Source of the DNA: an uncultured Bacilli bacterium
GTDB taxonomy: Bacteria; Bacillota_I; Bacilli_A; RF39; UBA660
Reading direction: 5' to 3'
Assembly: GCA_947629235.1 (NCBI GenBank)
Contig: CANRCX010000001.1
Coordinates: 46,374 to 110,373 of the forward strand
Length of the DNA: 64,000 bases
Shown here: piece after piece, positions 12,911 through 44,777 of the stretch
How positions within the stretch are numbered: the first letter of the stretch is position 1
Layout of the letters: every line of letters begins with the position of its first letter
Notes under the pieces: model-generated
The model's input: the letters and a program-made list of their open reading frames with translations, nothing else
What the model was told of the DNA's origin: nothing
Databases searched by the model: none
Program-made: the position numbers and the translations under genes

Positions 12911-12927
12911 ATCTTAAAATAATAAAT

Positions 12928-12956
12928 AAAATTCCTTAAATGGAATTTTATTTTTT
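12928..12956 (+). terminator. Rho-independent terminator after rpoC
   Basis: AAAATTCC-ttaaat-GGAATTTT followed by ATTTTTTG. Confidence 0.7.
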
Positions 12957-13009
12957 GTAAAAAATGTGAAAAATATGTTATAATTTATGAAAAGAAGGGA
13001 ATATTTAAA

Positions 13010-13486: not shown

Positions 13487-13626
13487 AGTATAAAGTATTA
13501 ATTTTTATTAATACTTTTTTAATGAAATAATAATTAAAAATTATAAATGATAAGATAGTTTATTACTATTTTTTCCTTGACTTTTAATATATATATATAT
13601 AATTTAATAAGCGAGGTTGGTATATA

Positions 13627-28305: not shown

Positions 28306-28425
28306 ATTTATTTAAAAAACTACAATTTTTTACAAATAAGTTTTATTCTTTTTGCTGATTAAATTAAAATTACTTTACAATAAAAACCAAATATTGTAAA
28401 CTTATTATAGGAGGTAAAATGATAT

Positions 28426-29043: not shown

Positions 29044-29048
29044 TAATA

Positions 29049-29072
29049 AGAAGCAATTTTGCTTCTTATTTC
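29049..29072 (+). terminator. Weak terminator-like hairpin
   Basis: AAGAAGCA-attt-TGCTTCTT followed by ATTTCC (short U-tract). Confidence 0.35.
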
Positions 29073-29124
29073 CTAAGTTGAATAGTATATATTCTATTTA
29101 GGAAATAAGAAGGAGAGTGATATT

Positions 29125-29568
29125 ATGGCATCTTCATCATATTGGGCAGGAAGACTAAATGAAGCAAAAGCATTAAAGGCAAAAGCAGAAGAAAGATTAA
29201 AAAAATTAGAAGAACTAAAAGGAAAAATAGATCCAATTCCAGAAGCATTAGAATCAGTAATTGATACTTTTCAAAAAATAGGATTTAGTTTATCTGCAGT
29301 TTGTCCAGCTGGTTATCCAATAGATAATGGAAGTTATAATAAAAATGCAGATGATTTGCAGACTGCAGAAAGTGATTATCTTTCATTAATAAGTGAATGT
29401 GCCAATCAAATAGAGGCTGAGAGACTCGATATTAGAGATTTTGATAATTCGATTACATACTATCAAAATCAATATGATATAGCTGTTGAAGCAGAAAGAC
29501 AGGCATATTTAGCATCATTACAAAATGCGAATAATAGTAAAAAGAATAATACTAGTACAAAAAAATGA
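29125..29568 (+). CDS. Small helical hypothetical protein (possible toxin-associated accessory)
   Basis: 147 aa, predicted coiled-coil/helical. AGGAG RBS. Sits between the WXG protein and the toxin gene. Confidence 0.45.
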   Translation: MASSSYWAGRLNEAKALKAKAEERLKKLEELKGKIDPIPEALESVIDTFQKIGFSLSAVCPAGYPIDNGSYNKNADDLQTAESDYLSLISECANQIEAERLDIRDFDNSITYYQNQYDIAVEAERQAYLASLQNANNSKKNNTSTKK

Positions 29569-29589
29569 AAAAAATAAATAGGAGTTAAT

Positions 29590-32500
29590 ATGAGATGCAT
29601 AAATTGTGGAAAAGAAATAGATGTTAGTTATGGAATGGTAATGTGTCCATATTGTGGAAGAATATTGGATGATAAAATAGATAAAACAGATTATGAAAAT
29701 GCATATAATGAATTTTCAAACGAAAGAGAAGAATTAAAAAAAAACAATAAAGATAATGATAAGCCAATAACAAATGAATTTAATAAAATGGATGATAATA
29801 CCAAACTAAAAAAAGCTATTGTAGGTGGACTAGCAACTACTGCTTTTGCAGCAAGTGCTGGAAGTCTTTATGCTGCAAATAAAAATATTAACAAAAGTAA
29901 TAAAGAAAACAAAAATAAAACTTTTCCAGATGATAATATTAACAATGTTGTTATAAATGATAACGATGAAATAGAAGAAAATGCAGACAATATATTAGAT
30001 GATGATTTATTTGATTCTAACGATGTGACTAATGAAGAAGACAATATAATAGTTGATAATAATGAAAATTTAGATACAAATAATAGTAGCCAAGCAGCTA
30101 AAGATAATGGTATAGATTATAACCCAAATGCAACTCCTTCTAAACCAAAAAAAAGTACTTCAAAAAAAGTAACATCCAAATCAAATAATAACAAAAATTC
30201 AACTACTACTTCAAAAGATGAAAATAGTAATGATAATAATTTAAATAATGAAGATCAAATAATAACAGATGAAAATATATCAGAAAACGAACAAGATTCA
30301 TCATCAGAAGAAACAGAAGATGATATATTTAAAAATCCAAATGAAGATGATGATACATCAAATAACGAACCTGATATAGATTCTGATAAATCAGATGAGA
30401 ATATTACTGATAATGAAGAATCTAATATCGATACATCAGAAGAAGGATTTGAAAATTTATCTCCATATCCAGCAACTACAATATCAAATAATACTAATTA
30501 TACAAATGATTCGTCATATAATAGTTCATCATTTTCGGTAGATTATTTTCATCTAGAAAATGCTATATCTTTAATAAATAATGCAAATGATTCTTTTAGT
30601 AATATAGTATCATTAACTTCTGATATAAATACTGACGGATTAAATTTACAAACATCTGTAGCCTCAGCTAATGCTACTATAGAAAAATGTTTTGGAAATG
30701 CATCTGGAAGTAAAGTTGGAGTTTCTGCTGGTACGGCATCTCAATTAAACAAATTAAGATCAGATTTACAAAAAATGGATCCAGATTATGATTTTAATTA
30801 TGATTATTATAAATATATGAATTTAGGTTATTTATCAGAGCAAGAAGGATGGAATTCTGATGAATTTAAAAAACAAGAAAGTAGTTTAGAATCAAGTTTA
30901 AGAAGTGAAATAGGAGAAAGAAAAAAAGAGTATGAAGGAAATACTAAAAAGATAGAATTTTTAGACCAAGTTATTGAATCAATAGATATTCAAAATGAGG
31001 CATTCGAAAATTATTATAAAAATTTAGTTGATATTGAAACATTTACTGCTGTAAATCAGTACGTATCTGATAGAATGAATGATTCTACTATACCTGCTAA
31101 TTCTACATATGAAAAATATATTGATGAAAAAGTACAAGAATTAAAAGATTTGAATGCAGAAAATGAAAAAAAATATAATGAATTAGAGAAGGCTAAGCAA
31201 AAAAATAAAAATGATATAAATACTAAAAATGGAACAGAAAATACTTCTTCTGAAGAAGAACTTACTGTTTCAAAATACTCTGATGGAACATATGCATATT
31301 TAGATGAACAAAGCTTACAATTATTACAATATTATACTAATTATAAGTATTTAAATGCATGTAATGAGAGTAATTCAATTTCATCAATCCAAAGTCAAAT
31401 ATCATCATTAGAAACTAAATTAAAAATGAATCAAGATAGTTTGAATTCTGGAATTGTTTATGAGAATGGTTATCCAACTGTTATGTCTAATGATGAAAAA
31501 ACTGAATTAGAAAATATAAATAAAAAATTAAGTCAAGAAAAAGATGATTTAAATAATAGAATTAATCAAATAAATGAATCTTTTGAAAGTATTCTTAAAG
31601 ATTATTATGATGCTAATGCTGAATCAATTTATAGAATACCAGAAATAAATAGAAAACCTGAACAAAAAGATTTCTTACTTTCAAGAGATAGTTATGTTGC
31701 AACTTTACAACAAAAAGATTTGAGAAATGAAATTCAAGAATATCAACAATATATAGAAGATATACAAGAAGAAATAGATAGTTTATCAGAAAAAGCAGCA
31801 GGAGCATATGCAACAAATGTATCTTATAATAGTTCAGAATATTCTGGAATAAATTATTATGCAAATTATAAAGCTGCTTTAAAATATGGATATGGTTTAG
31901 AGTATTTAGATGAAAAAGAACAAGCTAGATATAAATTTTTATTAGAAACTGTTTCTTCACTTGAAGAAAAAAGTGCCATTGCTTTAGATGCAAATAATAA
32001 ATTAGAAGAATTAAAACAACAATTAATAATGCAAAGAAGTGATTATAGTAAGTATTCTAATTTTAATAATATAAAAGTAGAAAATGGATTTTTTGGTGGT
32101 TTAGTTTTTAGAGATGCTACCACTAATGAAAAATTAGATTTGTCTAAAGAAGAACAAGCTGTAATTTTAGCAATGAAAGGCAGTAACTCTACAAATGGTA
32201 CAGTAAATGAATATATAAATTATTTAAAAAACGGAAGTGAAAATTTATCTTATGATGCTTTAGGTGTTATAGCATATAATATGAATAAATCAAAAGAATT
32301 TGAGGGATATGATTCTAACTTTGCTTCTAGTTTTGATTATCTTTATGATCAAGGTGCAAGAATACTTGGAAAACAAATGGCAGATGAATTTACTACTAGA
32401 TTAGATAATTGTCCTGATATATTTGATTGGGTTTTAGTTGCAGATGAGGCATTAGAAGATGGATTGACTGGTTTCTTCCGTGGATTTAAAAATATATTTT

Positions 32501-35500
32501 GTGCGGATGGAAGAGCAGATGCTAGAGATTATAAACCAATGTTTATAACAGATTATATTAATAATTCTGATCAATATTGTGGACTTTATAAAACAATTCT
32601 TACAAGTGAATATGAAATTACAAATAGTATAGGAAATATGTTACCATCTATGTTAGTTACTTTAATACCTGTTGTTGGTCCTGCTGTTGGTTTAATTTCT
32701 TTAGGTGTTTCTGCTGCAGGTAATGCTAGAGAACAAGGATTACAACAAGGCATGAGTCAAGCTTCAGCGTGGATGTATGGTGTTCTATCTGGTGCTTCTG
32801 AAGCTTTACTTGAGAAGTTCCTCGGAGGTATTCCTGGTCTTTCAGATATGTCAAATGTTGTTGGAGTTCATGGACTTGCAAGAATATTTAAGGCTGGATG
32901 TAGTGAAGCTAGAGAAGAAATGTTACAAGAATTCTTGGATCCAATATTTAAATTTGTATCAACAGGTGGAGAAATAAGAGAAAATATAAGTGTAGAAAAT
33001 ATTTTAAAAGCTGGAATTTATGCTTTTATAACTGCAGGAATTTTAAATGGTGGAAATGTAGCATTTGAAGGAGTTTCATATAGATTAACAGGAGATTATT
33101 TAGCTCTTGGTACTTTAGCATCTTTAAATACAAATAGTGATTTATCTATAAAAGAAAATATTAAAAATTTCTTAAGAGATTTAAATGAATTCCAAAATAG
33201 GGATATTAAGTCTCTTGAAGAAAGCTTAATGGAAAATGAAGAAGTAAAAGCTGCTTATGAAGCTGCTAAGGCTGGTAAAGGTGATCTTGCATTTAATGAT
33301 TTTGTATCTAGAATTGTAGTTGAACAAGTTGTTAGTGAAAATAATGCATTATCACAAGAGTTATCTGAAGAAATTAAACAAAAAACAAAAGATTTACAAG
33401 ATTTAAGAAATAAAAATATTGATGGTAGATATAATGAAGATATAAGTAAATTAGAAAGTGAAATAAATGATTTAACAGAGCAAAGAAAATCTATTTATGA
33501 TAATGATATGACAATTCAAGATTCAATAGAAAGAGCAAAAGAAAAAGCTGTTCAAAATATCGATGACTTAATAAGAAGAAATAACAAGCATTTAGCAAAA
33601 GATTTATCAGAAGTATCAGCTGAAAATCTAATAGAATATTTAAATAATACAGAAATAACAGCAGAAAAAATAAAAGTGTTATTTGATAATATTAGTGAAG
33701 AAAAAATAAATAAGATATTAGAAGAAAAACCAGAATTAAAAGCATTATTAGAAGAAAATAGTACTGAAAGTACTGATGCAAGTGTAATAAATCATGAGTT
33801 GATAGATAAATTTAAAGCAACTAAAAATTATGCAGAAAAAATAGAATTAATAGAACAAATGAGTTCAGAAGAAATAGTACAATTATTAAAAGAAGACTCA
33901 CAAGCAAAATTAGTACTAGGAAAAATAAAAGATAATGCGAAATTAGCAGATGTAATAAACAAATCAAATTCAGAAGTACTAAATTCAATTTTTGGTCCAC
34001 CATTAAATGAATATTCTGATACAACAACACAATTAAAGGAAACATTAAAAGCAAAATTAAAAGGCCAAGCATTATTTGAAGGAACTATAAATAAATTAAG
34101 AGAATTAGGAATAGAAATAGAAGAAAGTGAAGAACAAATAGAAACTTCAGATGATACAACGGCTGAACCAACTTCTGAAATAGTAGATCATCATGATGCA
34201 ACAACTGAAGAAAGTGAGTCAAAAACTCTACCAAAAAGTGATAATAGTACTGAAAGTACTGATGCAAGCGTAATAAGTCATGAATTGATAGATAAATTTA
34301 AAGCAACTAAAAATTATGCAGAAAAAATAGAATTAATAGAACAAATGAGTTCAGAAGAAATAGTACAATTATTAAAAGAAGACTCACAAGCAAAATTAGT
34401 ACTAGGAAAAATAAAAGATAATGCGAAATTAGCAGATGTAATAAACAAATCAAATTCAGAAGTACTAAATTCAATTTTTGGTACACAATTAAATGAATAT
34501 TCTGATACAACAACACAATTAAAGGAAACATTAAAAGAAAAATTAAAAGGTCAAACATTATTTGAAGGAACTATAAATAAATTAAGAGAATTAGGAATAG
34601 AGATTGAAGAAAGTGAAAAAACAAGTCATGAATTGATAGATAAATTTAAAGCAACTAAAAATTATGCAGAAAAAATAGAATTAATAGAACAAATGAGTTC
34701 AGAAGAAATAGTACAATTATTAAAAGAAGACTCACAAGCAAAATTAGTACTAGGAAAAATAAAAGATAATGCAAAATTAGCAGATGTAATAAACAAATCA
34801 AATTCAGAAGTATTAAATTCAATTTTTGCTACACAATTAAATGAACATTCTGATGCAACAACACAATTAAAGGAAACATTAAAAGCAAAATTAAAAGGTC
34901 AAACATTATTTGAAGGAACTATAAATAAATTAAGAGAATTAGGAATAGAAATAGAAGAAAGTGAAAAACAAGTAGAAATTGCACATGATATAACAACAGA
35001 ACAAACATCTGAAATAGTAGATCATCAAGATACAACAACTGATAAAGCAGCAGAAGAAACAGATCATCAAGATACAACAACTGATAAAGCAGCAGAAGAA
35101 ACAGATCATCAAGATGCAACAATTAAACCAACACCAGAAGAAACAGATCATCAAGATGCAACAATTGAACCAACACCAGATGAAGCAGGTCAACAAGATG
35201 CAACAATTGAACCAACACCAGATGAAGCAGAACAACATGATACAATAATTGAACCAACAATAGAAGATGCAGGTCAACATGATGCATTAACAGATGCAAC
35301 AGCAAAAGTAGATGAGGCACATGATGTAGTAACAGATGCAGCAGAACAAGTAAAAGAAGCAGAGAATTTAGTGGATTCTTCATCTGAAAATAATCAAGCA
35401 TCTGTTCCACCAGTTCCACCAATAGTAGATATTGACTCAAATGCAAATCAATCACCTATAAAGATGGAAATATCTGAATTTTTAGCAAAATATAAAGGCT

Positions 35501-37206
35501 TTAAAAATATATATGAATTTAAACAAAAATTTTCATCATTGTTAAGTCAATGGGAAAGTTCTTTAACGGCTAGAGAAATAAGTTTAATTGAGAATTATAC
35601 AGGTAATAATGAAATGGAATTTGGAAATTATGCAACTGTAAATAGCATATTGAGAGGAATCTTTTTCAATTCACAAGATGGTAAAATTCACATTAAAAGA
35701 ATTGGTGGAGATGAAGATTCATATACTTTTTCAGAATTTGCTTATATGGTAAGGAGTAAATACTCTTCTGCAGCAAATCTTAGTGATGCAGATGCAATAA
35801 AGTTTTTTGTGAGAGGCCAAATACAAGCTATAAATGATTTATCTAATGCAATAAGTAAATTTGAACTTCCAGAAGATATATTATTGGAAAGACGCATTGG
35901 TGGTAGTTCATTAGTTAAACTCTTTAATATTGATATAAATAATGATTCTGTTGAGGATGTTGTAAGAAAAATAAATGATGGTGGTTATTTTAGAGATAAT
36001 GGTTTTATGAGTACTTCAGCCGGTAAATCTCCAGGATATGGAAATGTTGTACTAAAGCTTGGATGTAAAGCTGGTATGTCTGCAGTTGATATCACAGGAA
36101 ATAGTAAATATTCAGTTGGAGAAAATGAAGTCCTTGTAAACATTGGTACAACATTTAGAGCGGTAAATGCAGAAAGAGTAAATGGAAGATTAGTTATTTA
36201 TTTAGAAAGTATTCCAGCTAATAATATTCAAGTTGATAGTATGGATAGCTTAAAAACATTTATTTCTGATAATATAAATGCTTCACCAAATTCAATAGCT
36301 AAAACAATTAATAATTATTTTGAACAACAAATGAAAAATAATGCATCTAATTCATACTTAAAACAAAGCCTTTATTATGATTTATTAGAAATATCTGGTA
36401 TGCCTGGAATTGATCAAACAACTATGTCAGAAATATTATCTTCAGTAATTTCAAATAATAAAGAAATGAGATCAATAATATATGAAATGGCACAAGAAGA
36501 AATAAAGCAAAGTTTTAAAGATACATTAGATATACAAAATGATGCTGATATAAAAACATTAACAGATTTTATATTAGGAGAATCTTTTGTAGAAAATGGT
36601 GTTGGTAATCAAAATTGGGATGGATTTTTTAACTTTATATATGATAAAGTTAAAGAATCAGTTGCTAAATCTGCAAAAAATAAAGAAGCAATATTATGGA
36701 GTAAGCTTCCAACAATAGCATTAAATCAAATGTATTCTACAATTGAAAATACTACACTTGGAGATACTATGTACTTTTTAGATTTAGTTTATTCAAATTG
36801 GAATAGTCAATTTAGCACTTTACCACCATTAGAAGAATTCTGGGGTAAAATGTCTAAATTATATGCAGAAGCATGTTCTAATTTAAAAGATGAAAATGGA
36901 AATCCAATAACAAAATTAAAATATATTTATCCAGGTCAAGATGCTATAGGTGAGTTATTTAAAAAAGAAGAATTACCTACATTGTTAGAAAAAGGAGTAA
37001 TAAAAACATTGGAAGTTGTTAAAGCTAATGTAGATGAAACAAATCCAGATTTACCTAAACTAACAAATGAAAAAACAATAGAAATAGATTTAACAGAATT
37101 AAGCAATTTCTATAGAAAGAATCTTAATAAAGGTGTTTCAAAAGATATTTTAATTGAAAAAGTTTATTCAAAATTCATTGAATTATTACATAAGGGAGGT
37201 TTATAA
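29590..37206 (+). CDS. Giant modular protein with C-terminal ADP-ribosyltransferase (iota/VIP2/C2-type, R-S-ExE) toxin domain
   Basis: 2538 aa. N-terminal CxxC…CxxC zinc ribbon (CINCGK…CPYCGR) then a TM helix (KLKKAIVGGLATTAFAASAGSLYAA). A D/N/S-rich linker, then a long helical region. A hydrophobic Gly-rich segment (aa ~1000-1150). Three ~116-aa tandem repeats, then TDHQD acidic repeats and a PPVPP motif. In the C-terminus the ART motifs read LLERRIGG (Arg, nt 35888-35893), FMSTSAG (STS, nt 36004-36024) and GENEVLV (ExE, nt 36118-36138). Confidence 0.8.
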   Translation: MRCINCGKEIDVSYGMVMCPYCGRILDDKIDKTDYENAYNEFSNEREELKKNNKDNDKPITNEFNKMDDNTKLKKAIVGGLATTAFAASAGSLYAANKNINKSNKENKNKTFPDDNINNVVINDNDEIEENADNILDDDLFDSNDVTNEEDNIIVDNNENLDTNNSSQAAKDNGIDYNPNATPSKPKKSTSKKVTSKSNNNKNSTTTSKDENSNDNNLNNEDQIITDENISENEQDSSSEETEDDIFKNPNEDDDTSNNEPDIDSDKSDENITDNEESNIDTSEEGFENLSPYPATTISNNTNYTNDSSYNSSSFSVDYFHLENAISLINNANDSFSNIVSLTSDINTDGLNLQTSVASANATIEKCFGNASGSKVGVSAGTASQLNKLRSDLQKMDPDYDFNYDYYKYMNLGYLSEQEGWNSDEFKKQESSLESSLRSEIGERKKEYEGNTKKIEFLDQVIESIDIQNEAFENYYKNLVDIETFTAVNQYVSDRMNDSTIPANSTYEKYIDEKVQELKDLNAENEKKYNELEKAKQKNKNDINTKNGTENTSSEEELTVSKYSDGTYAYLDEQSLQLLQYYTNYKYLNACNESNSISSIQSQISSLETKLKMNQDSLNSGIVYENGYPTVMSNDEKTELENINKKLSQEKDDLNNRINQINESFESILKDYYDANAESIYRIPEINRKPEQKDFLLSRDSYVATLQQKDLRNEIQEYQQYIEDIQEEIDSLSEKAAGAYATNVSYNSSEYSGINYYANYKAALKYGYGLEYLDEKEQARYKFLLETVSSLEEKSAIALDANNKLEELKQQLIMQRSDYSKYSNFNNIKVENGFFGGLVFRDATTNEKLDLSKEEQAVILAMKGSNSTNGTVNEYINYLKNGSENLSYDALGVIAYNMNKSKEFEGYDSNFASSFDYLYDQGARILGKQMADEFTTRLDNCPDIFDWVLVADEALEDGLTGFFRGFKNIFCADGRADARDYKPMFITDYINNSDQYCGLYKTILTSEYEITNSIGNMLPSMLVTLIPVVGPAVGLISLGVSAAGNAREQGLQQGMSQASAWMYGVLSGASEALLEKFLGGIPGLSDMSNVVGVHGLARIFKAGCSEAREEMLQEFLDPIFKFVSTGGEIRENISVENILKAGIYAFITAGILNGGNVAFEGVSYRLTGDYLALGTLASLNTNSDLSIKENIKNFLRDLNEFQNRDIKSLEESLMENEEVKAAYEAAKAGKGDLAFNDFVSRIVVEQVVSENNALSQELSEEIKQKTKDLQDLRNKNIDGRYNEDISKLESEINDLTEQRKSIYDNDMTIQDSIERAKEKAVQNIDDLIRRNNKHLAKDLSEVSAENLIEYLNNTEITAEKIKVLFDNISEEKINKILEEKPELKALLEENSTESTDASVINHELIDKFKATKNYAEKIELIEQMSSEEIVQLLKEDSQAKLVLGKIKDNAKLADVINKSNSEVLNSIFGPPLNEYSDTTTQLKETLKAKLKGQALFEGTINKLRELGIEIEESEEQIETSDDTTAEPTSEIVDHHDATTEESESKTLPKSDNSTESTDASVISHELIDKFKATKNYAEKIELIEQMSSEEIVQLLKEDSQAKLVLGKIKDNAKLADVINKSNSEVLNSIFGTQLNEYSDTTTQLKETLKEKLKGQTLFEGTINKLRELGIEIEESEKTSHELIDKFKATKNYAEKIELIEQMSSEEIVQLLKEDSQAKLVLGKIKDNAKLADVINKSNSEVLNSIFATQLNEHSDATTQLKETLKAKLKGQTLFEGTINKLRELGIEIEESEKQVEIAHDITTEQTSEIVDHQDTTTDKAAEETDHQDTTTDKAAEETDHQDATIKPTPEETDHQDATIEPTPDEAGQQDATIEPTPDEAEQHDTIIEPTIEDAGQHDALTDATAKVDEAHDVVTDAAEQVKEAENLVDSSSENNQASVPPVPPIVDIDSNANQSPIKMEISEFLAKYKGFKNIYEFKQKFSSLLSQWESSLTAREISLIENYTGNNEMEFGNYATVNSILRGIFFNSQDGKIHIKRIGGDEDSYTFSEFAYMVRSKYSSAANLSDADAIKFFVRGQIQAINDLSNAISKFELPEDILLERRIGGSSLVKLFNIDINNDSVEDVVRKINDGGYFRDNGFMSTSAGKSPGYGNVVLKLGCKAGMSAVDITGNSKYSVGENEVLVNIGTTFRAVNAERVNGRLVIYLESIPANNIQVDSMDSLKTFISDNINASPNSIAKTINNYFEQQMKNNASNSYLKQSLYYDLLEISGMPGIDQTTMSEILSSVISNNKEMRSIIYEMAQEEIKQSFKDTLDIQNDADIKTLTDFILGESFVENGVGNQNWDGFFNFIYDKVKESVAKSAKNKEAILWSKLPTIALNQMYSTIENTTLGDTMYFLDLVYSNWNSQFSTLPPLEEFWGKMSKLYAEACSNLKDENGNPITKLKYIYPGQDAIGELFKKEELPTLLEKGVIKTLEVVKANVDETNPDLPKLTNEKTIEIDLTELSNFYRKNLNKGVSKDILIEKVYSKFIELLHKGGL
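33760..34966 (+). repeat. Three near-identical in-frame tandem repeats (~348-nt core; ~116 aa) inside the toxin gene
   Basis: Units begin ~33760, ~34246 and ~34621 and each ends in GAAGAAAGTGAA. Their protein sequence (SHELIDKFKATKNYAEKIELIEQMSSEEIVQLLKEDSQAKLVLGKIKDNAKLADVINKSNSEVLNSIF…KGQTLFEGTINKLRELGIEIEESE) is nearly identical at nt level. Confidence 0.9.
35020..35290 (+). repeat. Short degenerate acidic tandem repeats (DHQDTTTDKAAEET / DHQDATIEPTPDEA)
   Basis: A 42-nt unit gatcatcaagatacaacaactgataaagcagcagaagaaaca is repeated exactly twice, followed by 3-4 diverged copies. Confidence 0.8.
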
Positions 37207-37207
37207 T

Positions 37208-37711
37208 ATGAATGCATTAACACAAATTAACACAGATTTATATGATAAGAGATTAGATATAAAATTCAATCCAGATTTATTAAATGAACTTGATTATGAT
37301 AGTAGGCATAAAGTGGAAAAAACTTTATTATCTTATTGTAAGCAAGGAATTGAAACATCATTTAAATATCTACAATATTTTAATACAATTAGTGAAGAAG
37401 ATATGATAACAGAAGAAGATATTTCAAAACTTTCATTACCATATCAGGTGGAAATTTATAGATTCTTATTTTTAAAAAGTAAAAATTTGGATATATTAAA
37501 TAAATTAATTAATTTATCTATGAATTCTTATAACGCTTTTTACCAGTTGTTAATGATATATAATTCTGATATAATAACTGATGAAGAAAAGGAAAAAATA
37601 AAATTAGCAATAGATAAGTCATTTGAAAATAATAAAACAGATATAAATTATAAATTTTTGATTGATAATTATATAGATGGTTATGATAATGATGATATAA
37701 AATTGTTATAA
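37208..37711 (+). CDS. Small helical protein immediately 3' of ART toxin; candidate immunity protein
   Basis: ~167 aa from ATG 37208 (GGGAGG RBS 9 nt upstream). The ORF-track start at 37154 overlaps the toxin 3' end and lacks an RBS. No recognisable family. Position is typical of a cognate immunity gene. Confidence 0.5.
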   Translation: MNALTQINTDLYDKRLDIKFNPDLLNELDYDSRHKVEKTLLSYCKQGIETSFKYLQYFNTISEEDMITEEDISKLSLPYQVEIYRFLFLKSKNLDILNKLINLSMNSYNAFYQLLMIYNSDIITDEEKEKIKLAIDKSFENNKTDINYKFLIDNYIDGYDNDDIKLL

Positions 37712-37730
37712 TATTAGGAGGATTTTAAAT

Positions 37731-37946
37731 ATGGAAAATAAGTATAGTAAATTTAAAAGTGATGAAGAAAATGAATTTACTACTGGTAATAAACGTGGTA
37801 GTTTAACACAAGAACAAATAAGAGAAGAATTGGAACAAAAATTACAGTCACAATTAAAAATGATTGATGACTGGGTTGCATCATCTTCAAGTCAAGAAGC
37901 AGATGAAGAACAAGAGCAAGAAAGAGAAGAAGGACTGCATAGATAA
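37731..37946 (+). CDS. Small acidic hypothetical protein
   Basis: 71 aa. Strong AGGAGG RBS. C-terminus is highly acidic (EADEEQEQEREE). The stop abuts the start of the ADP-ribosylglycohydrolase gene. Confidence 0.35.
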   Translation: MENKYSKFKSDEENEFTTGNKRGSLTQEQIREELEQKLQSQLKMIDDWVASSSSQEADEEQEQEREEGLHR

Positions 37947-37947
37947 T

Positions 37948-38910
37948 ATGAATAATATTATAAAAAATGGTTTATATGGTTTTGCTATTGGTGATGCAAT
38001 GGGTGTACCAATTGAATTCACACCTAGAGTTAGCGATGAATCAAAAAAATTAAAAGAAATGGTAGGATATGGATCACATCATGTTCCAGAGGGAACTTGG
38101 TCAGATGATACTTCAATGACAATTGCTACTATGGATTCTATACAAGAATGTAAAGGAATTGATTATTATGATATAATGGATAAATTTACAAATTGGTATA
38201 ATAATGCATTGTATACTGCAACTGATAGAGTCTTTGATATTGGAAATACTACACGTTTGGCAATAGATAAATATAGTAGATTATCAATGAATCCACTTCA
38301 ATGTGGTGGAAAAAATGAAAGAGACAATGGTAATGGTTCACTAATGAGAATGCTTCCTATTGCAATATATTTATTTTATAATAATTTAAGTGAACAAGAA
38401 GAAATGGAAATAGTAAAAAACATTTCTTCTCTAACTCATGCCCATGATATTAGTATATTAGGATGTAAAATATATGTAGATTTTATTAAAGAAATTCTTT
38501 CTGGAAAATCAAAAGAAGATGCATATAATAGTTTATCCAAAAATAATTATAATGTTTATTTTGATAATAATACAATTGAAAAATATGATTCTATATTAAA
38601 TGGTAATTTGAAAAATAAATCAATAGATGAAATAAGATCATCTGGTTATGTAGTTAATACACTAGAAGCATGTTTGTGGTGTACGTTAAATACAAAAAAT
38701 TATGAAGAGAGTATAATAGAAGCAATTAATTTAGGAAAAGATACTGATACAGTAGGTGCAATTACAGGATCTTTAACTGGATTAATATATGGATATGATA
38801 ATATACCACAAAGATGGCTATCAAAATTAAGAAAAAAAGAATATTTAGATGAACTAATTGATAAGTTTAATAATTATTTAAATAATGAAAATGTTAAAGT
38901 TAGAGGATAA
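37948..38910 (+). CDS. ADP-ribosylglycohydrolase (DraG/ARH family)
   Basis: ~320 aa from ATG 37948. N-terminal GLYGFAIGDAMGVPIEF matches the ARH family metal-binding region. C-terminal …KDTDTVGAITGSLTGLIYG is the conserved second Asp cluster. The ORF-track start at 37864 is an in-frame 5' extension. Confidence 0.8.
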   Translation: MNNIIKNGLYGFAIGDAMGVPIEFTPRVSDESKKLKEMVGYGSHHVPEGTWSDDTSMTIATMDSIQECKGIDYYDIMDKFTNWYNNALYTATDRVFDIGNTTRLAIDKYSRLSMNPLQCGGKNERDNGNGSLMRMLPIAIYLFYNNLSEQEEMEIVKNISSLTHAHDISILGCKIYVDFIKEILSGKSKEDAYNSLSKNNYNVYFDNNTIEKYDSILNGNLKNKSIDEIRSSGYVVNTLEACLWCTLNTKNYEESIIEAINLGKDTDTVGAITGSLTGLIYGYDNIPQRWLSKLRKKEYLDELIDKFNNYLNNENVKVRG

Positions 38911-38912
38911 TT

Positions 38913-39422
38913 ATGATAAATATTGTTTTATATGAACCAGAAATACCAGCTAATACTGGAAATATTATGAGAACTTGTGTTGCGACTAATTCAAGACTAC
39001 ATTTAATTAAACCACTAGGTTTTAGTTTAGAAGATAAATATATTAAAAGATGTGGTGTTAATTATATTGATAAATGTGTTTATACTGTTTATGAAAATAT
39101 AGATGAATTCTTTGAAAAGAATAAAGGTGAATACTATTTTTTAACAAGGTATGGACATAAACCACATACTAGTTTTGATTATAGTGATAAAGATAAAAAT
39201 TATTATTTCTTTTTTGGAAAAGAAAGTACAGGTATTCCACCTAAAATATTAAAACCATATATAGATAGATGTATGAGAATGCCTATGACTGATAATGTAA
39301 GAGCACTTAATGTTTCAAATACTGTTGCTATTATGGTATATGAAGCATTAAGGCAACAAGATTATCCTGGTTTATTATTTGATGAACCACATAAAAGTAA
39401 AAATTTTATAGAAGAGAGTTAA
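38913..39422 (+). CDS. trmL: tRNA (cytidine/uridine-2'-O)-methyltransferase TrmL (SpoU/TrmH family)
   Basis: 169 aa. MINIVLYEPEIPANTGNIMRTCVATN…LHLIKPLGF is the TrmL/YibK signature. Confidence 0.75.
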   Translation: MINIVLYEPEIPANTGNIMRTCVATNSRLHLIKPLGFSLEDKYIKRCGVNYIDKCVYTVYENIDEFFEKNKGEYYFLTRYGHKPHTSFDYSDKDKNYYFFFGKESTGIPPKILKPYIDRCMRMPMTDNVRALNVSNTVAIMVYEALRQQDYPGLLFDEPHKSKNFIEES

Positions 39423-39510
39423 ATACTAGTATATGACTAGTATTTTTTTTAATTTTGTGTTAAAATGTTTAATAGCATTTGAACTTTTTATTTTGAAGGA
39501 GATGAATATT

Positions 39511-41163
39511 ATGAGCAAAATTAATATAATGAGTTTAGGTGGATTAAATGAAAATGGTAAAAATTTATATACAGTTAGTATAGATGGTAAAATACTAATA
39601 TTTGATTGTGGAATGAAATATGCTCCAGATAAAATGTATGGAGTTGATTATGTTATTCCTAATATTTCATATTTAATTGAACATCAAAAAGATATAGTAG
39701 GTTTATTTGTGACACATCCACATCATGAAAATATGGGAGCTATTACAGATATTTTAACATCACTTCCAAATTTACATGTATATGCATCAAACTATACAAG
39801 TAAAATAATTGAATATAAGTGTGAAGAAGATAATGTTAAAATTAAAAATTTACATGTTATAAATGCACATAAAAAACTTGATTTTAAAACATTTAGTGTG
39901 TTTCCATTTAGTGTAACTCATAGTAGTCCTGAAACATTAGGATACTCTATAAATACTGATGATGGAGCTATTATATACATGGCTGATTTTGTAATTGATC
40001 CAACTATGAATGGTTTTTATGATATGGATTTAGGAAAACTTGCATATATTGGTAAACAAGGTGTTTTATGTTTAATGGCAGAAAGTGTATTTGCAGAAAA
40101 GAAAGGACATACAAGTCCTAATCATAAATTAGAAAGTTTCTTTAAAAAAGTAGTAGAAAGAAATAAAAATAGAATTATGTTTACAGTTCTTCCATTACAT
40201 ATTTATACTATTCAAGAAATATTTAATTCTCTAAAGGGTAAAAATAGAAAAGTAGTAATTATGGGAAAAGAACTTCATACAATAGTATCTTTATGTATTA
40301 AAAACGGATACTTAAATGTAGATGAAGATATGCTTGGTAATTTAACTGATTTAAAAATAGAAAATACAGTTATATTAATTAGTAATGATAGAGAAGCACC
40401 ATATTCAAATATTAATAGAATATTAAGTGGACATGATAAATTTATTACTCTTCAAAAAGGAGATACTATATGTTTTGCAGAACCTAGTTATGATGCTTAT
40501 GAGAAAGTACTTGTAAAGCTTATGAATGAGTTATCTATAAAAGGAGTTAATATAGAATCAATTCCAAAAGAAAATAGTGTTAGACATCATGCATCTAGTG
40601 AAGACTTAATGTTATTAATTAAACTTTTTAATCCAAAATACTATATGCCTATTAAAGGAGAATATAGATATCAAGTAGAAAATGGAAATCTTGCATATAA
40701 AGTAGGAGTACCAAAAGAAAATATTATATTAAAAGAAAATGGTGATATTGTTACATTTGAAAATGGTAAATTAATAGAAAATTATGATAGAGTGTTTGTA
40801 GATGATATATTAATTGATGGTAAGAGTAGTGAAGATGTAGGAGATGTAGTACTTAAAGATAGAGAACTTTTAAGTAGTAATGGTCTTGTATTAATATCAG
40901 CTACATTATCTAAAAAAGAAAAAAAATTACTTGTAGGACCAGAAATAGTTACAAGAGGATTTATATATGCTAAAGACAATATGGATATAATTGCTGAAAT
41001 AAGAAATATAAGTAATGAAGTAATAAAAGAAAATACTCATAATAAATATGCAGATTATGTAAAAATAAGAAATGATATTCGTGAAAAAGTAGGAACATAT
41101 TTATATAAAGCTACTGAATGTAAACCAGTAATACTTACAGTTATTCAAGAAATAGAGGTGTAA
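39511..41163 (+). CDS. rnj: Ribonuclease J
   Basis: Metallo-beta-lactamase HxHxDH motif (VTHPHHENMGA), a beta-CASP domain and an RNase J C-terminal domain. ATG 39511 follows a GGAG RBS. The ORF-track start at 39433 is upstream. Confidence 0.85.
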   Translation: MSKINIMSLGGLNENGKNLYTVSIDGKILIFDCGMKYAPDKMYGVDYVIPNISYLIEHQKDIVGLFVTHPHHENMGAITDILTSLPNLHVYASNYTSKIIEYKCEEDNVKIKNLHVINAHKKLDFKTFSVFPFSVTHSSPETLGYSINTDDGAIIYMADFVIDPTMNGFYDMDLGKLAYIGKQGVLCLMAESVFAEKKGHTSPNHKLESFFKKVVERNKNRIMFTVLPLHIYTIQEIFNSLKGKNRKVVIMGKELHTIVSLCIKNGYLNVDEDMLGNLTDLKIENTVILISNDREAPYSNINRILSGHDKFITLQKGDTICFAEPSYDAYEKVLVKLMNELSIKGVNIESIPKENSVRHHASSEDLMLLIKLFNPKYYMPIKGEYRYQVENGNLAYKVGVPKENIILKENGDIVTFENGKLIENYDRVFVDDILIDGKSSEDVGDVVLKDRELLSSNGLVLISATLSKKEKKLLVGPEIVTRGFIYAKDNMDIIAEIRNISNEVIKENTHNKYADYVKIRNDIREKVGTYLYKATECKPVILTVIQEIEV

Positions 41164-41165
41164 AA

Positions 41166-42290
41166 ATGATATATTTAGATTATAGTGCAACAACTCCAGT
41201 TGATGAAAGAGTACTTGATTCTTATTGCAAAACTACAAGAGAGTTTATAGGAAATGCAAATTCAATACATACTCTTGGTAGTAAGTCAAAAGAATTATTA
41301 ATGCAAGCAACTAATCAAATAGCAAGTATATTAAATTGTCATCCAAAAGAATTAATATTTACAAGTGGAGCTAGTGAAAGCAATACTACTGCTATTAAAG
41401 GGGTAGCATTTAAATATTCAAAATTTGGAAAACATATAATCACTTCTAAATTAGAACATAAAAGTGTACTTGAAGTTATGGGATACTTAAGTAATATTGG
41501 ATTTGAAGTTGATTTTGTAAATATTCTTCCAAATGGACAAATAGATTTAAAAAATTTAGAAGAATTAATTAGAAAAGATACAATACTTATAAGTATATGT
41601 GCTGTTAATAGTGAAACAGGATATAAACAACCACTTAAAACTATTAGACAAGTTATTAACAAGAAAAATCCAAATGTAATATTTCATAGTGATTTAACAC
41701 AAGCACTTGGTAAAACTAGATTTTATTTAAATGATTTAGATTTAGCATCATTCTCAGCTCATAAAATATATGCACCAAAAGGTATTGGAATTTTATATAA
41801 GAAAAGAGATTTACAAATTGATACATTAATATATGGAACAACAGAAAATTGTCCATTTAGAGGTGGAACACCACCACTTCCACTAGTAGTAGCATTTGCA
41901 AAAGCAATGAGACTTATTAGTGATAAATTAGAAACTAATATTAAAAAATGTGAAAAATTAAAAGCTGAATTATTAAAAGGACTTTCAAAATATCCTATAC
42001 AAATTAATTCAAATGAATTATGTGTTCCACAAATTGTTAACTTTAGTTTACTTAAAATTAAATCAGAAACATTTGTACATGCTCTTGAAAAATATGAAGT
42101 TTACGTATCAACTACAACAGCATGTTCTAGTTTAGAAGAAAGTACAGTATTAAAAGCAATATCAAATGGTAATAAAGATGTATCTACAACATCTATTAGA
42201 GTTAGTTTATCTCACTTAACTACTATGAGTGAAATACAAGACTTTTTAGAAATATTTGATAAAGTATGGAATGAGTTATTATTAAAATGA
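41166..42290 (+). CDS. Cysteine desulfurase (NifS/IscS/NifZ-like, class V aminotransferase)
   Basis: 374 aa. PLP-lysine region SFSAHKIYAPKGIGILY. Paired with thiI, as with B. subtilis nifZ-thiI. Confidence 0.85.
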   Translation: MIYLDYSATTPVDERVLDSYCKTTREFIGNANSIHTLGSKSKELLMQATNQIASILNCHPKELIFTSGASESNTTAIKGVAFKYSKFGKHIITSKLEHKSVLEVMGYLSNIGFEVDFVNILPNGQIDLKNLEELIRKDTILISICAVNSETGYKQPLKTIRQVINKKNPNVIFHSDLTQALGKTRFYLNDLDLASFSAHKIYAPKGIGILYKKRDLQIDTLIYGTTENCPFRGGTPPLPLVVAFAKAMRLISDKLETNIKKCEKLKAELLKGLSKYPIQINSNELCVPQIVNFSLLKIKSETFVHALEKYEVYVSTTTACSSLEESTVLKAISNGNKDVSTTSIRVSLSHLTTMSEIQDFLEIFDKVWNELLLK

Positions 42291-43462
42291 AACAAGTTAT
42301 ATTAATAAAATATGGTGAGTTAACAACTAAAAAAGATAATAGAAATTTCTTTATTAGAACACTTAAGAAAAATATTTTAAATAAACTTTCTAATTTTAAA
42401 TTTGATATAGTAGACGATTATTATAGAATGTTTATAATACCTAGTAATGATGATATTGATTTAATTGTAGATAATCTTAAAAATATATTTGGTATTCATG
42501 CAATTGTAATTGCTTTAATGAGTGAAGATAAAAGTGAAAATAATATTAAAGAAATCTCACTTAATATGATGAGAGAGTTAAACTATAATACTTTTAAAGT
42601 TGAAACTAAAAGAAGTGATAAATCATATCCTATAAAATCTATGGATATGAATAATATAGTAGGTTCACATATTCTTAAAAATACAAATTATAAAGTAGAT
42701 GTACATAACCCCGAAGTTTTATTAAATGTAGAAATAAGAAGAGAAGCAGTATACATTTATAATAGTAGTATTCCAGGTCTTGGTGGTTATCCTGTTGGTA
42801 CACTTGGAAGGGCTTTATTAATGTTAAGTGGTGGGATTGATTCACCAGTTGCTGGATACTTAACTATTAAAAGAGGAGTAGAACTTTATTATTTATATTT
42901 TGAAAGTAGACCACATACTAGTATTGAAGCAAGAAATAAAGTAATAAGTCTTGCAAGAAAACTAGAAAAATATAATTCAAATGGTAAATTATTAGTAGTT
43001 AATTTTACTAAAATACAAGAAGCAATATATAAGAATTTAGATCCTTCATATTTAATAACAATAATGAGAAGAAAAATGTATACAATAGCTGAAAAATTAG
43101 CTAAAAGATATAATTGTCTTGCTATTGTTAATGGAGAAAGTATAGGACAAGTTGCAAGTCAAACATTAAGTAGTATTTTATCAGTAAATGATGTTACTAA
43201 TTATCCAATATTAAGACCACTTTGTTCTTTTGATAAATTAGATATAATAGAAATATCTAAAAAAATAGATACATATGAAATATCAATACTTCCATATGAA
43301 GATTGCTGTACTGTATTTGTACCAAAACATCCAGTTATTAATCCAGAATTAAAGCATATTTATGAAGAAGAGAGTAAATTTGATTTTGAACCATTAATAG
43401 AAGAAGCAGTAAAAAATGTAGAAATAGTTGATTTAAAAGAAAAAATAAGTGATTTATTATAA
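42287..43462 (+). CDS. thiI: tRNA 4-thiouridine synthase ThiI
   Basis: THUMP-like N-terminus. PP-loop SGGIDSPVA. Overlaps the desulfurase stop codon. Confidence 0.85.
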   Translation: MKQVILIKYGELTTKKDNRNFFIRTLKKNILNKLSNFKFDIVDDYYRMFIIPSNDDIDLIVDNLKNIFGIHAIVIALMSEDKSENNIKEISLNMMRELNYNTFKVETKRSDKSYPIKSMDMNNIVGSHILKNTNYKVDVHNPEVLLNVEIRREAVYIYNSSIPGLGGYPVGTLGRALLMLSGGIDSPVAGYLTIKRGVELYYLYFESRPHTSIEARNKVISLARKLEKYNSNGKLLVVNFTKIQEAIYKNLDPSYLITIMRRKMYTIAEKLAKRYNCLAIVNGESIGQVASQTLSSILSVNDVTNYPILRPLCSFDKLDIIEISKKIDTYEISILPYEDCCTVFVPKHPVINPELKHIYEEESKFDFEPLIEEAVKNVEIVDLKEKISDLL

Positions 43463-43510
43463 AAATTGTGATATTCTTTTTATATAAGACATAGTAAAAG
43501 AGGAATGTGT

Positions 43511-44149
43511 ATGAGTAATGATTTAAATAAAACAGCAGATGATATAATGAAAGGATTTAAAGCACTTGGTGGTGGAGTACATGAAGCAGGTAAAAGAAGA
43601 GTAGATGAATTAGTAGCTAAACAAGGATATGTTGGATATAGAAATGAAAAAGCTGCTGAGTTATTCAAAAAAGAACATGAAAATTGGAGTACTGAATATA
43701 TTGATGGTGAATATAGATTTTATCCACCTAAACAAGAATTAAATAATGAAAATATTGATTATTTAAATGATTATAAAAATAATAAAAGTAATCCTATGAA
43801 TTCAACTTCTATAAATATAGAATTTTTAAATAATCAAGAATGTAAATATAGTTTAATTGTAATAGATAGAAGTACTGGTGAAAGAAAAGTATTAGATGAA
43901 AAAACAGTACGACTTGATAATAAATTTTTATATGAAACACTACCTAGTTTATATAACCAATTATGTTCAGGATTACCAGTAATAGATTATGAAAAAGATA
44001 CTATAATTAATTTTACTAGTGTTGATGGTAATCATAGTATGATGTTTGGTAATCTAAATGAAGAAAATAAAGAATTTATTAAAAATATGAAATCATTTGT
44101 AGATGAGAAAATGGGATATAATATTTATAGTGATGGTAAGGGTAGATAA
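43511..44149 (+). CDS. Hypothetical protein
   Basis: ~212 aa from ATG 43511 (AAAGAGGAA RBS). No family recognised. Confidence 0.45.
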   Translation: MSNDLNKTADDIMKGFKALGGGVHEAGKRRVDELVAKQGYVGYRNEKAAELFKKEHENWSTEYIDGEYRFYPPKQELNNENIDYLNDYKNNKSNPMNSTSINIEFLNNQECKYSLIVIDRSTGERKVLDEKTVRLDNKFLYETLPSLYNQLCSGLPVIDYEKDTIINFTSVDGNHSMMFGNLNEENKEFIKNMKSFVDEKMGYNIYSDGKGR

Positions 44150-44163
44150 ATAATAAAAAATAG

Positions 44164-44192
44164 TTGAATTTACTAAATAAATATTGTATAAT
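44164..44192 (+). promoter_or_regulatory. Sigma-A type promoter for T-box/leuS transcript
   Basis: TTGAAT (-35), 17-nt spacer, TATAAT (-10). Confidence 0.5.
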
Positions 44193-44198
44193 TTAGAC

Positions 44199-44400
44199 AT
44201 ATTTCATTGACAAAGAGAGTAGTAAATTAAATTTTTAATTCAAGAGAGTTAGTGGTAGGTGTAAACTAATATTAAAATTGATTGAACTTGCTTTTTTAGA
44301 AATAACGTTTTCCGCGATAAGGAATTAAAGATGCATAAAACTTTATGAAATAAGGTGGTACCGTGGGCTTGCTCATCCTTAATTATAAAGTTTTTATTTT
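44199..44400 (+). promoter_or_regulatory. T-box riboswitch leader (Leu-specific) with intrinsic terminator
   Basis: Stem I elements AGAGAGTAG…; candidate specifier region GAACUUGC (CUU Leu codon). Conserved T-box core AAGGTGGTACCGTGGG. Terminator helix ACTTTATGAAATAAGG…CCTTAATTATAAAGT enclosing the T-box core, followed by TTTTTATTTT (44341-44400). leuS lies downstream. Confidence 0.7.
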
Positions 44401-44411
44401 GGAGGAAGCAG

Positions 44412-44777
44412 ATGAATAAATTATTTTCATTCTTATATGATTTTGTCCTGTTATTCTTATTATTTTATATTGTATATCGTGTATTTATTAATAAGAAAAA
44501 GAAAAGTTATAGTAAACTTAAAAAGAATGATGAAGTTAAAATATTTATAGCTAGATATAATTTAGATGTAAGAAAATTAGATTATAAAAAAATACTAAAT
44601 ACAATAGCTTTAATTAATTCATTTATTATTTCATTTACTAGTACACTTATATTAAATATAGATAATTTTATAATATCAATAATGGTATGTTTTGTAGTTT
44701 TAATGATATTAATTTATTCACTTTATGAAATAGCTGGAAGATATTTTAAGAAAATGGAGGAAAAAGAAAATGTATGA
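44412..44777 (+). CDS. Small hypothetical membrane protein between T-box and leuS
   Basis: 121 aa from ATG 44412 (GGAGG RBS). Two or three hydrophobic helices. Stop overlaps the leuS start (ATGTATGA). The ORF-track start at 44355 would run through the T-box terminator and is rejected. Confidence 0.4.
   Translation: MNKLFSFLYDFVLLFLLFYIVYRVFINKKKKSYSKLKKNDEVKIFIARYNLDVRKLDYKKILNTIALINSFIISFTSTLILNIDNFIISIMVCFVVLMILIYSLYEIAGRYFKKMEEKENV

Follow-up and report, generated by a model that had tools for sequence, protein, structure and literature searches.

ADP-ribosyltransferase (ART) toxins of the ExE type and ADP-ribosylglycohydrolases (ARHs) of the DraG/Tri1 type are both arginine-directed, and the ARHs are the best-known repair-type immunity proteins: they act on the modification, so they can also cover non-cognate ART toxins. 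One of them, Tri1, partly rescues cells from the non-cognate toxin TreX (PMC11606950). Passages of the toxin catalogue of Zhang et al. (2012; PMC3482391) place ADP-ribosylglycohydrolase immunity strictly with R-S-E ART toxins, including those of Firmicutes type VII secretion systems (T7SSs; WXG/LXG), and list Tox-ARC as a separate toxin domain. The ART toxin Lmo0066 lies in the T7SS variable region, or hotspot, of Listeria (PMC5417603), and in Bacteroides stercoris a single ART toxin, Bxa, is neutralized by a small non-enzymatic binder, Bsi, together with an ARH, BAH (PMC11699363). Toxins with the fold of the ADP-ribosyl cyclase (ARC) CD38 are represented by Tac1, with its immunity protein Tci1, from the Streptococcus parasanguinis T7SSb (PMC12356396; 9ouf) and by ARCtox, with ARCimm, from a type VI secretion system (T6SS) of Pantoea (PMC12605009; 9ro8). 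Here we compare these systems with a locus in a 64,000-nucleotide stretch from an uncultured Bacilli bacterium (contig CANRCX010000001.1, positions 46,374 to 110,373; 'the window'), where a giant toxin gene with an ART domain is followed by genes for a 167-amino-acid (aa) protein, a 71-aa acidic protein and an ARH.

By its sequence the locus belongs to the general Imm-ARG/Tox-ART-RSE class. About 320 toxin residues remain between the end of the ART domain and the C-terminus, and we consider it very likely that they form an ARC-like NADase (an enzyme consuming nicotinamide adenine dinucleotide, NAD) in tandem with the ART. The genes that follow are probably a self-protection set against a toxin with two warheads, in which the 167-aa protein would block the ARC-like domain and the ARH would reverse the damage done by the ART. 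The original prediction for this locus, made from the DNA alone, had read the toxin as an ART only and so missed the domain that modelling now places behind it.

Relatives of the toxin tail were gathered by an exhaustive HMMER search with the tail itself and by a metagenome scan; a word-indexed homologue search with the same domain returned no relatives. The HMMER search yielded a family of 39 representatives. In most of them the tail is the extreme C-terminus of a large protein, often 60–150 residues past an ART, and it sometimes occurs without a detectable ART or as a stand-alone protein of ~300 aa, a distribution that, judged from sequence, is the behaviour of a mobile polymorphic-toxin tip. 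Most members keep the motifs WS, TIENTT.G, NW, FW..S..YAE and FG..F...E.P, which are reminiscent of CD38; eight motif positions (W155, N172, N188, W203, S207, G239, F242 and E246) are strictly invariant in a 14-sequence alignment. Pfam gave no match to the domain at E-values up to 10, and a PDB profile search reached CD38 only at E-values of 1.4–3. An AlphaFold2 model computed with the 14-sequence alignment had a mean predicted local distance difference test (pLDDT) score of 91.7 and a predicted template-modelling (pTM) score of 0.88, and its top two Foldseek matches were the solved bacterial ARC toxins 9ro8 and 9ouf (Tac1), at E-values of 0.05–0.14. The CD38/ADP-ribosyl-cyclase fold of the predicted model was obtained by two methods. 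From this modelled fold, the domain is predicted to destroy NAD(P)+. A model from the single sequence (pLDDT 65) gave meaningless Foldseek matches and was discarded.

The identities of the ART domain and the ARH come from direct sequence matches. Pfam run on the full-length toxin missed the ART; the isolated stretch matches PF03496 (E-value 3.4e-16) and PF01129 (0.0012), and the R (LERRIGG), STS (FMSTSAG) and ExE (GENEVLV, with ENE) motifs can be read from its sequence. Its best PDB matches are Lmo0066 (8za7_B, 1.7e-9) and Tre1 (6dre_B, 0.004). The full PF03747 model aligns with the ARH (E-value 3.8e-74), and the PDB matches of the ARH are Lmo0067 (8za7_A, 6e-70) and Tri1 (6dre_A, 9e-49). Among 31 homologues its motifs GDAMGVPIEF, WSDDTS, DIGNTT and DTDTVG are invariant or nearly so, with D16, E23, D53, D54, S56, D265, T266, D267 and T268 invariant and D97 kept in at least 90%; they match Tri1 and Lmo0067 residue by residue, bearing out the DraG-type Asp clusters that had first drawn attention to this gene. 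Because the best solved relatives of both proteins are the ART–ARH complexes 8za7 and 6dre, the two together point to immunity. From this homology, the intact catalytic residues and the conserved linkage to ART toxins described below, we conclude that the ARH is likely to be an enzymatic immunity protein, predicted to remove the ADP-ribose that the ART domain adds.

To assign the 167-aa protein we relied on its genomic company. It matches no Pfam family, Imm74 and Imm41 included, and no solved PDB relative, and a word-indexed search with it returned itself only. The single PDB profile match covers 45 residues of a designed PPR repeat and was judged a helical-repeat artefact. The metagenome scan for the ARC-like domain identified two loci (L and P labels denote related loci and proteins). 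In L091, the stop codon of the gene for a 1309-aa ART+ARC toxin overlaps the start of the next gene, which encodes a 231-aa homologue of the 167-aa protein (BLASTP 1e-11). In L090, a 2429-aa ART-ARC-ART toxin precedes two paralogues of 527 and 525 aa, the N-terminal 155 residues of which are 167-like and the C-terminal part ARH. A hidden Markov model (HMM) of the family places a 167-like domain N-terminal to the ARH in at least 9 of the 120 closest ARH homologues, each 480–559 aa long, with fusions at L090, L092, L094, L096 and L100. Every fusion that could be placed directly follows a large toxin; the three toxins scanned are ART + ARC-like, and the toxin of P0021 lay outside the scan.

Family HMMs were used to tabulate co-occurrence over about 16 independent loci. 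A 167-like protein or domain lies downstream of all eight ART + ARC-like toxins (the window, L090, L091, L092, L094, L096, L100 and L003) and immediately after both tabulated ARC-like toxins without a detectable ART (P0123 in L098, and P0139 in L099), and it is found at none of the six ART-only loci (L002, L009, L059, L079, L082 and L086), every one of which has an ARH. These ART-only loci carry the ARH by itself, with a different small protein, or with a different extension of 60–85 aa. After a third ARC-like-only toxin, P0126, comes a putative gene of 173 aa. L003 reverses both arrangements at once, with ARC ahead of ART in the toxin and ARH ahead of the 167-like domain in the immunity fusion. 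Given the cross-table and this joint inversion, two independent pairs, ARC-like domain with 167-aa family and ART with ARH, are the simplest reading. Strict co-occurrence and adjacency lead us to predict a binding-type immunity function for the 167-aa protein, directed at the ARC-like domain, and the fusion of 167-like domain and ARH in relatives supports a functional tie between the 167-aa protein and the ARH. The original prediction had cast the pair as a dual immunity, binder and hydrolase, against the ART. The ARH retains that role as a likely enzymatic immunity protein, and the link between the two proteins is reinforced by the fusions, but the 167-aa protein follows the ARC-like domain and, to judge from the six ART-only loci, the binder is probably not aimed at the same ART.

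Several observations weigh against a two-pair arrangement. The L091 toxin has both domains and a 167-like protein, yet the 6 kb on each side of the matched toxin domain contain no ARH. There, the ARH may be dispensable or encoded elsewhere, or the 167-like protein may protect against the ART as well. The fusion of an N-terminal domain to an ARH is also reminiscent of Tri1, where the N-terminal region blocks the ART. The 167-aa family is not Imm74, the known immunity family of T7SS ARC toxins, and the loci are few (~16) and from one bacterial lineage, so that common descent may account for part of their co-occurrence. The assignment of the ARC-like domain is based on a structure prediction, with sequence searches that are not significant and marginal Foldseek E-values, and some members of the ARC-like family have Ser at the position matched to CD38 E146. 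T7SS export of the toxin is probable, and its basis is the adjacency of the toxin gene to those for an EssC-like ATPase and a WXG100-domain protein alone; no LXG domain was detected in the window toxin or in related toxins.

The first two of these points would be explained if the 167-aa protein and the ARH both countered the ART, as a dual immunity against one warhead with the ARC-like domain a mere accessory. Such a split of binder and hydrolase is proven for Bxa/Bsi/BAH, and the ART adjoins the ARC-like domain in most family members. We nevertheless regard this alternative as unlikely. It conflicts with the lack of a 167-like domain at all six independent ART-only loci and with the presence of a 167-like gene right after toxins whose ART is undetectable (L098; P0139 in L099), and the joint inversion in L003 is what two independent pairs would lead one to expect. 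An accessory role also fits poorly with a domain that is the sole recognizable C-terminal module of many proteins and that has a predicted enzyme fold with conserved active-site-like residues.

Those residues bear on a second alternative, in which the ARC-like domain is a non-catalytic module for targeting, translocation or chaperone binding and the 167-aa protein is its export chaperone or stabilizer. The catalytic set is W125, E146, W189 and E226 in CD38 and W273, E299, W323 and E356 in ARCtox (PMC12356396, PMC12605009). In the ARC-like family W155, W203 and E246 are invariant, as is S207 at W+4, the relation of S193 to W189 in CD38, and their spacing is like that of the CD38 catalytic residues; the correspondence was made by motif, not by superposition. 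As a pattern the conserved residues read W...E/N...W..S...E, which is similar to the catalytic residues of CD38 and the ARC toxins. The equivalent of E146, also matched by motif, is E171 in TIENTT, a Glu in the window toxin; at this position in Tac1, Glu favours full hydrolysis to ADP-ribose (PMC12356396). Its variation within the family favours a non-catalytic module, as do the lack of a significant sequence match to characterized ARC enzymes and the example of TrxA with TreX, a helper that binds the C-terminal extension of an ART toxin (PMC11606950). Set against this, T7SS chaperone genes normally lie upstream of the toxin and not immediately downstream, the domain forms the only C-terminal module of many large proteins or stands alone, and a role in immunity would suit a 167-like domain that is fused to an immunity enzyme, the ARH. 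With the invariant residues, these arguments make the chaperone alternative improbable.

The place of the ARH in the cassette was settled by synteny. Its closest homologues, 55–66% identical, come from related uncultured low-GC Bacilli, and ARH is linked to an ART toxin at L086, L082, L002, L009, L059, L079, L090, L092, L094, L096, L100 and L003. L086 reads EssC, a 920-aa toxin with terminal ART, a 71-aa open reading frame (ORF), ARH, rnj, nifS and thiI. The P0021 contig has a giant toxin, 152-aa and 153-aa ORFs, an ARH fusion, rnj, DUF4186, nifS and thiI, and L003 a partial giant toxin, four genes, an HD-ARH-167-like fusion, a 97-aa ORF, rnj, nifS and thiI. L089 begins at a contig edge, which cuts off the upstream region, with a partial 52-aa ORF, then ARH, rnj, nifS and thiI. 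None of these four has trmL. L082 runs EssC, trmL, rpoZ, DUF4176, ART toxin, 97-aa ORF, ARH, kinase, many small genes and rnj; its trmL orthologue, 93% identical to that of the window, sits between EssC and the toxin and not after the ARH. In other lineages the toxin–ARH unit is flanked by other gene pairs, trmD and rplS or mscL and gltX. Because in close relatives the ARH follows the ART toxin wherever trmL lies, we assign it to the toxin cassette and not to a trmL operon. The flanking housekeeping genes are 75–93% identical to those of the window, and the lower figure for the ARH would suit an immunity gene that evolves fast or is exchanged.

It had been left to exclude that the ARH is a housekeeping or regulatory enzyme of endogenous ADP-ribosylation or NAD/ADP-ribose metabolism, part of a trmL-rnj-nifS-thiI operon and beside the toxin by chance; despite the 2-nucleotide (nt) distance to trmL, the lack of any predicted + strand terminator from toxin to thiI, and the commonest upstream neighbours at 54 GTDB loci, which are not toxins, synteny effectively excludes this, given that trmL adjoins an ARH homologue at 0 of 80 GTDB loci, that the ARH follows an ART toxin where trmL is absent (L086, L003, the P0021 contig) or upstream (L082), that the toxin–ARH unit recurs in unrelated contexts, that ARH identity falls below that of its housekeeping neighbours, and that its best solved relatives are toxin-bound immunity proteins. 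The loci compared include no ARH upstream of trmL in a genome lacking the toxin, the case that the original prediction had named as refuting it. At the 54 loci (148 upstream ORFs), where the ARH homologues are 40–55% identical, the neighbours are mostly NrtR/NUDIX regulators and phosphoribosyl pyrophosphate (PRPP) synthetases. Because the wider ARH family is functionally mixed in this way, ARH homology alone is not evidence of immunity.

From gene structure, domain identities, folds and co-occurrence we infer the enzymatic activities, physical binding and protection in the following scheme. The large toxin, probably exported by the T7SS, would carry an NAD-consuming ART of the arginine-type R-S-ExE class, related to Lmo0066 and Tre1, and behind it an ARC-like domain that also consumes NAD. 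Before the toxin leaves the producer cell, the 167-aa protein would bind the ARC-like domain and stop hydrolysis of NAD(P)+, by analogy with the cleft binders Tci1 and ARCimm, and the ARH would continually clear the ADP-ribose put by the ART on arginines of cellular targets. Sister cells that receive the toxin would be shielded by the same two proteins. In relatives, one 167-like/ARH fusion of ~520 aa faces ART+ARC toxins, and the window would hold the split version of this two-headed immunity.

Such an arrangement would matter for how toxins and immunity evolve together. The coupling of an ART to a second NAD-destroying domain suggests how attackers may bypass generic ARH protection: we speculate that competitors with an ARH would again be killed by a toxin whose added NADase calls for a dedicated inhibitor, and the recurrent fusion of both immunity functions may be the defender's answer. 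The scheme offers a first functional hypothesis for the 167-aa family, whose members occur in many Bacillota of gut and rumen, either as separate proteins or joined to an ARH, and it would extend the bacterial CD38-like toxins to a longer, sequence-divergent branch. The ART, the ARC-like domain and the three small genes form a test set for separating occlusion from reversal.

The order of the genes may record how the cassette was assembled. The immunity order mirrors the order of the toxin domains in the window (ART-ARC with 167-ARH, 29590–38910), and mirrored order is also seen in L003 (1–11401) and L099 (3–7610); the last has the nested pattern [ART toxin][ARC toxin][167-like][171 aa][HD-ARH]. 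These mirrored orders suggest nested cassette insertion, and the window order, ART-ARC, 167, 71, ARH, looks like an [ARC + 167] unit nested in an older [ART ... 71 + ARH] unit.

Table 1. Positions of features in the window and in related loci (nucleotide coordinates within each locus).
Locus	Feature	Position	Strand	Remarks
Window	Superfamily-1 helicase-domain protein, 1609 aa	13627-18456		AAA_11, AAA_12, AAA_30; C-terminal MTES_1575/DUF559
Window	FtsK/SpoIIIE EssC-like ATPase	23716-28305		directly upstream of toxin
Window	WXG100-domain protein	28426-29043		directly upstream of toxin
Window	Polymorphic toxin gene, 2538 aa	29590-37206	+	low-complexity/repeat stretches, then two C-terminal domains predicted to be enzymatic; stop codon TAA
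Window	Toxin N-terminus	29590-29900		CxxC…CxxC zinc-ribbon-like motif
Window	Toxin repeats (aa about 1400-1950)	about 33790-35440		three near-identical ~160-aa repeats
Window	ART domain (toxin aa about 1971-2204), R-S-ExE class	35500-36201	+	PF03496, PDB matches, motifs
Window	ARC-like domain (toxin aa about 2218-2535)	36241-37194	+	predicted second NAD-consuming warhead
Window	167-aa ORF	37208-37711	+	ATG 1 nt past toxin stop, preceded by ribosome-binding site AAGGGAGG
Window	71-aa acidic ORF	37731-37946	+	own ribosome-binding site TAGGAGG inside 19-nt gap
Window	Arg71 codon of 71-aa ORF	37941-37943		
Window	ARH gene, 320 aa	37948-38910	+	ATG 1 nt past 71-aa stop
Window	trmL (SpoU methylase)	38913-39422	+	PF00588; starts 2 nt after ARH stop
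L086	ORF in 71-aa slot	9366-9581		
L002	ORF in 71-aa slot	9552-9776		
L003	ORF in 71-aa slot	9207-9437		
L009	ORF in 71-aa slot	9431-9961		
L099	ORF in 71-aa slot	5692-6207		
L082	ORF in 71-aa slot	9705-9998		
L003	HD_4-ARH protein, 655 aa	9434-11401		
L099	HD_4-ARH protein	6204-7610		
L100	HD_4 protein, 149 aa	5326-5775		after immunity fusion
L082	Kinase-domain gene and small-ORF array	10962-17511		after ARH, before rnj

The three genes proposed to follow the toxin stop codon were confirmed on the + strand (Table 1). A 348-aa version of the ARH, starting from TTG 37864 in the mechanical ORF list, would overlap the 71-aa gene, and the 320-aa version was preferred. The same 167/71/320/trmL arrangement is present in L001, from a metagenome assembled independently, which excludes an assembly error as the source of the three separate ORFs. 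The first housekeeping gene, trmL, is the cassette boundary and lies outside the cassette; beyond it come rnj, a nifS/iscS-like gene and thiI. No + strand intrinsic terminator was predicted in 28000–44500, from the WXG-like gene through the toxin, the small genes, trmL, rnj and nifS to thiI, and promoter-like sites in the same region were no more frequent than in shuffled sequence. Transcription of the toxin island may read through into the housekeeping genes.

The 71-aa protein has an isoelectric point of 4.5 and, among its last 31 residues, 10 Asp/Glu but only 3 Lys/Arg. Its ORF exactly occupies the space available, both assemblies contain it, and ORF calls in public assemblies from NCBI and ENA include it; we regard it as a credible gene, translationally coupled to the ARH. 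The same slot holds ORFs of 71–97 aa in L086, L082 and L002 and of 171–176 aa in L009 and L099. The small proteins of L086 and L002 are related to each other (E-value 4e-7). Kinship of the window protein with those of L086, L002 and L082 was not supported, as 138 of 500 shuffles scored as well, and an HMM of the small proteins found no match among the fusion linkers. Two further derivations were rejected: an origin as a split-off Tri1-like extension (hhalign probability 0.3% against the 60–85 aa N-terminal extensions of longer Bacillota ARHs), and a reading of the 231-aa L091 protein as a 167-like/71-like fusion, the tail of which does not match the 71-aa protein.

A C-terminal Arg ends 10 of 41 distinct ORFs upstream of an ARH and 6.5% of 1289 background ORFs (binomial p 2e-4, a post hoc comparison); five of the six ART-linked small-ORF families share this ending, and the remaining one has Arg-Lys. 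Where coupling is tight, the terminal AGA/AGG codon may belong to the ribosome-binding site of the ARH, which is not the case in L009 and L003. Speculatively, the 71-aa protein could be a small occluder that binds the ART, by analogy with Bsi or the Tri1 extension. A defence in three layers, with the 167-aa protein plugging the NADase, the ARH erasing marks, and the 71-aa protein serving as a sacrificial pseudo-substrate or occluder for the ART, and with the NADase warhead added as the toxin's counter-move against broad ARH cross-protection of non-kin, is a doubtful extension of the scheme. Were the ART to modify the C-terminal Arg of the 71-aa protein, the ARH made with it would regenerate that Arg.

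The rest of the toxin and its neighbourhood offer further observations. The zinc-ribbon-like motif at the N-terminus gives weak Pfam matches (E-value about 0.003) and is followed by a hydrophobic segment, AIVGGLATTAFAASAGSLYAA, making an N-terminus that is unusual for a T7SS substrate. The ~160-aa repeats (…HELIDKFKATKNYAEKIELIEQMSSEEIVQLLKEDSQAKLVLGKIKDNAKLADVINKSNSEVLNSIF…) are separated from the ART domain by short tandem ETDHQD(T/A)T… repeats. Among the neighbouring ORFs that were scanned, Pfam recovered no domains except FtsK/SpoIIIE and WXG100; relatives of the locus are flanked by DUF4176 genes. The 1609-aa helicase/restriction-endonuclease-like protein is located between rpoC-like genes and ffh.

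The ARH homologues are themselves varied in architecture and context. Many close homologues (473–489 aa, and the 655-aa L003 protein) have an N-terminal HD_4 domain, a RelA/SpoT-type HD hydrolase; instances are found in L003, L099, P0024, P0041, P0079, P0080 and P0099, and L100 encodes a separate HD_4 protein. HD_4 might add another enzymatic layer of immunity, directed perhaps at an alarmone-synthetase or other nucleotide-based warhead carried by the same giant toxins, an idea for which Aph1, as cited within the Bxa study (PMC11699363), is a comparison case. In L082, the closest relative, the ARH is followed by a gene for a 259-aa protein with a protein-kinase domain and then a small-ORF array with five DUF4176 genes, which looks like an orphan toxin/immunity or chaperone array. 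In Bacteroidota (L030, L039, L044, L046, L049, L053, L061, L071, L073, L076 and L080), homologues about 40–45% identical lie downstream of NrtR-type NUDIX, PRPP-synthetase-like and nucleoside 2-deoxyribosyltransferase-like genes (about 7–10 kb in each locus), a context of NAD/ADP-ribose metabolism and not of toxins.

The original prediction had called the combination of ART toxin, binder and hydrolase beside a T7SS a previously undescribed arrangement. This was overstated, because ARH immunity to T7SS toxins had been predicted in 2012 (PMC3482391), the structure 8za7 had been solved, and a split binder and hydrolase had been shown with Bxa/Bsi/BAH (PMC11699363). What does appear undescribed is the ART+ARC tandem toxin, of which the parts of the two bacterial ARC toxin studies that we compared make no mention (PMC12356396, PMC12605009), together with the 167-aa family and its recurrent fusion to ARH. 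The passages of the Zhang catalogue cited above likewise contain no ART+ARC tandems and no ARG/ARC-immunity fusions, and the 167-aa family of the window matches no Pfam Imm family.

Comparison with the characterized systems places the locus between several of them. With Tre1/Tri1 of Serratia proteamaculans (6dre, 6drh; PMC8120803, PMC11606950), a T6SS pair with a bifunctional ARH for which this kind of immunity is proven, it shares an R-S-ExE ART with a DraG-like ARH downstream and, by analogy, the logic of enzymatic reversal of arginine ADP-ribosylation. Unlike Tri1, the window ARH begins 5 residues before the ARH domain and has no occluding extension of ~70 residues (residue 6 of the query aligns with residue 73 of Tri1), and the window combines T7SS-like delivery in a low-GC Gram-positive lineage with an ARC-like warhead and two extra small genes. 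Of the solved structures, Lmo0066/Lmo0067 of Listeria monocytogenes (8za7) stand nearest to both the ART and the ARH; they too are Gram-positive and T7SS-linked, with an ARH that has no long extension, but they differ in that the solved 180-residue Lmo0066 chain is an ART alone.

Bxa/Bsi/BAH offers the precedent for a separately encoded binder and hydrolase, and the 71-aa protein of the window is a possible counterpart of Bsi. That system is unlike the window in being encoded by a prophage of Bacteroidota, in having an ARH1-like BAH and in having no second toxin domain reported, whereas in the window the larger helper, of 167 aa, tracks a different toxin domain. For the second warhead the points of reference are Tac1 and ARCtox. 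The window domain differs from them in its length, about 320 aa against 127–148 aa, with a helical N-terminal part, in being undetectable by sequence and partnered by a protein that is not Imm74, and in its fusion behind an ART. It resembles them in its predicted CD38-like fold and C-terminal position and, in the case of Tac1/Tci1, in T7SS association; and for both Tac1 and ARCtox the immunity gene lies immediately downstream, where the window has the gene of the candidate 167-aa partner, and encodes a protein predicted to plug the catalytic cleft.

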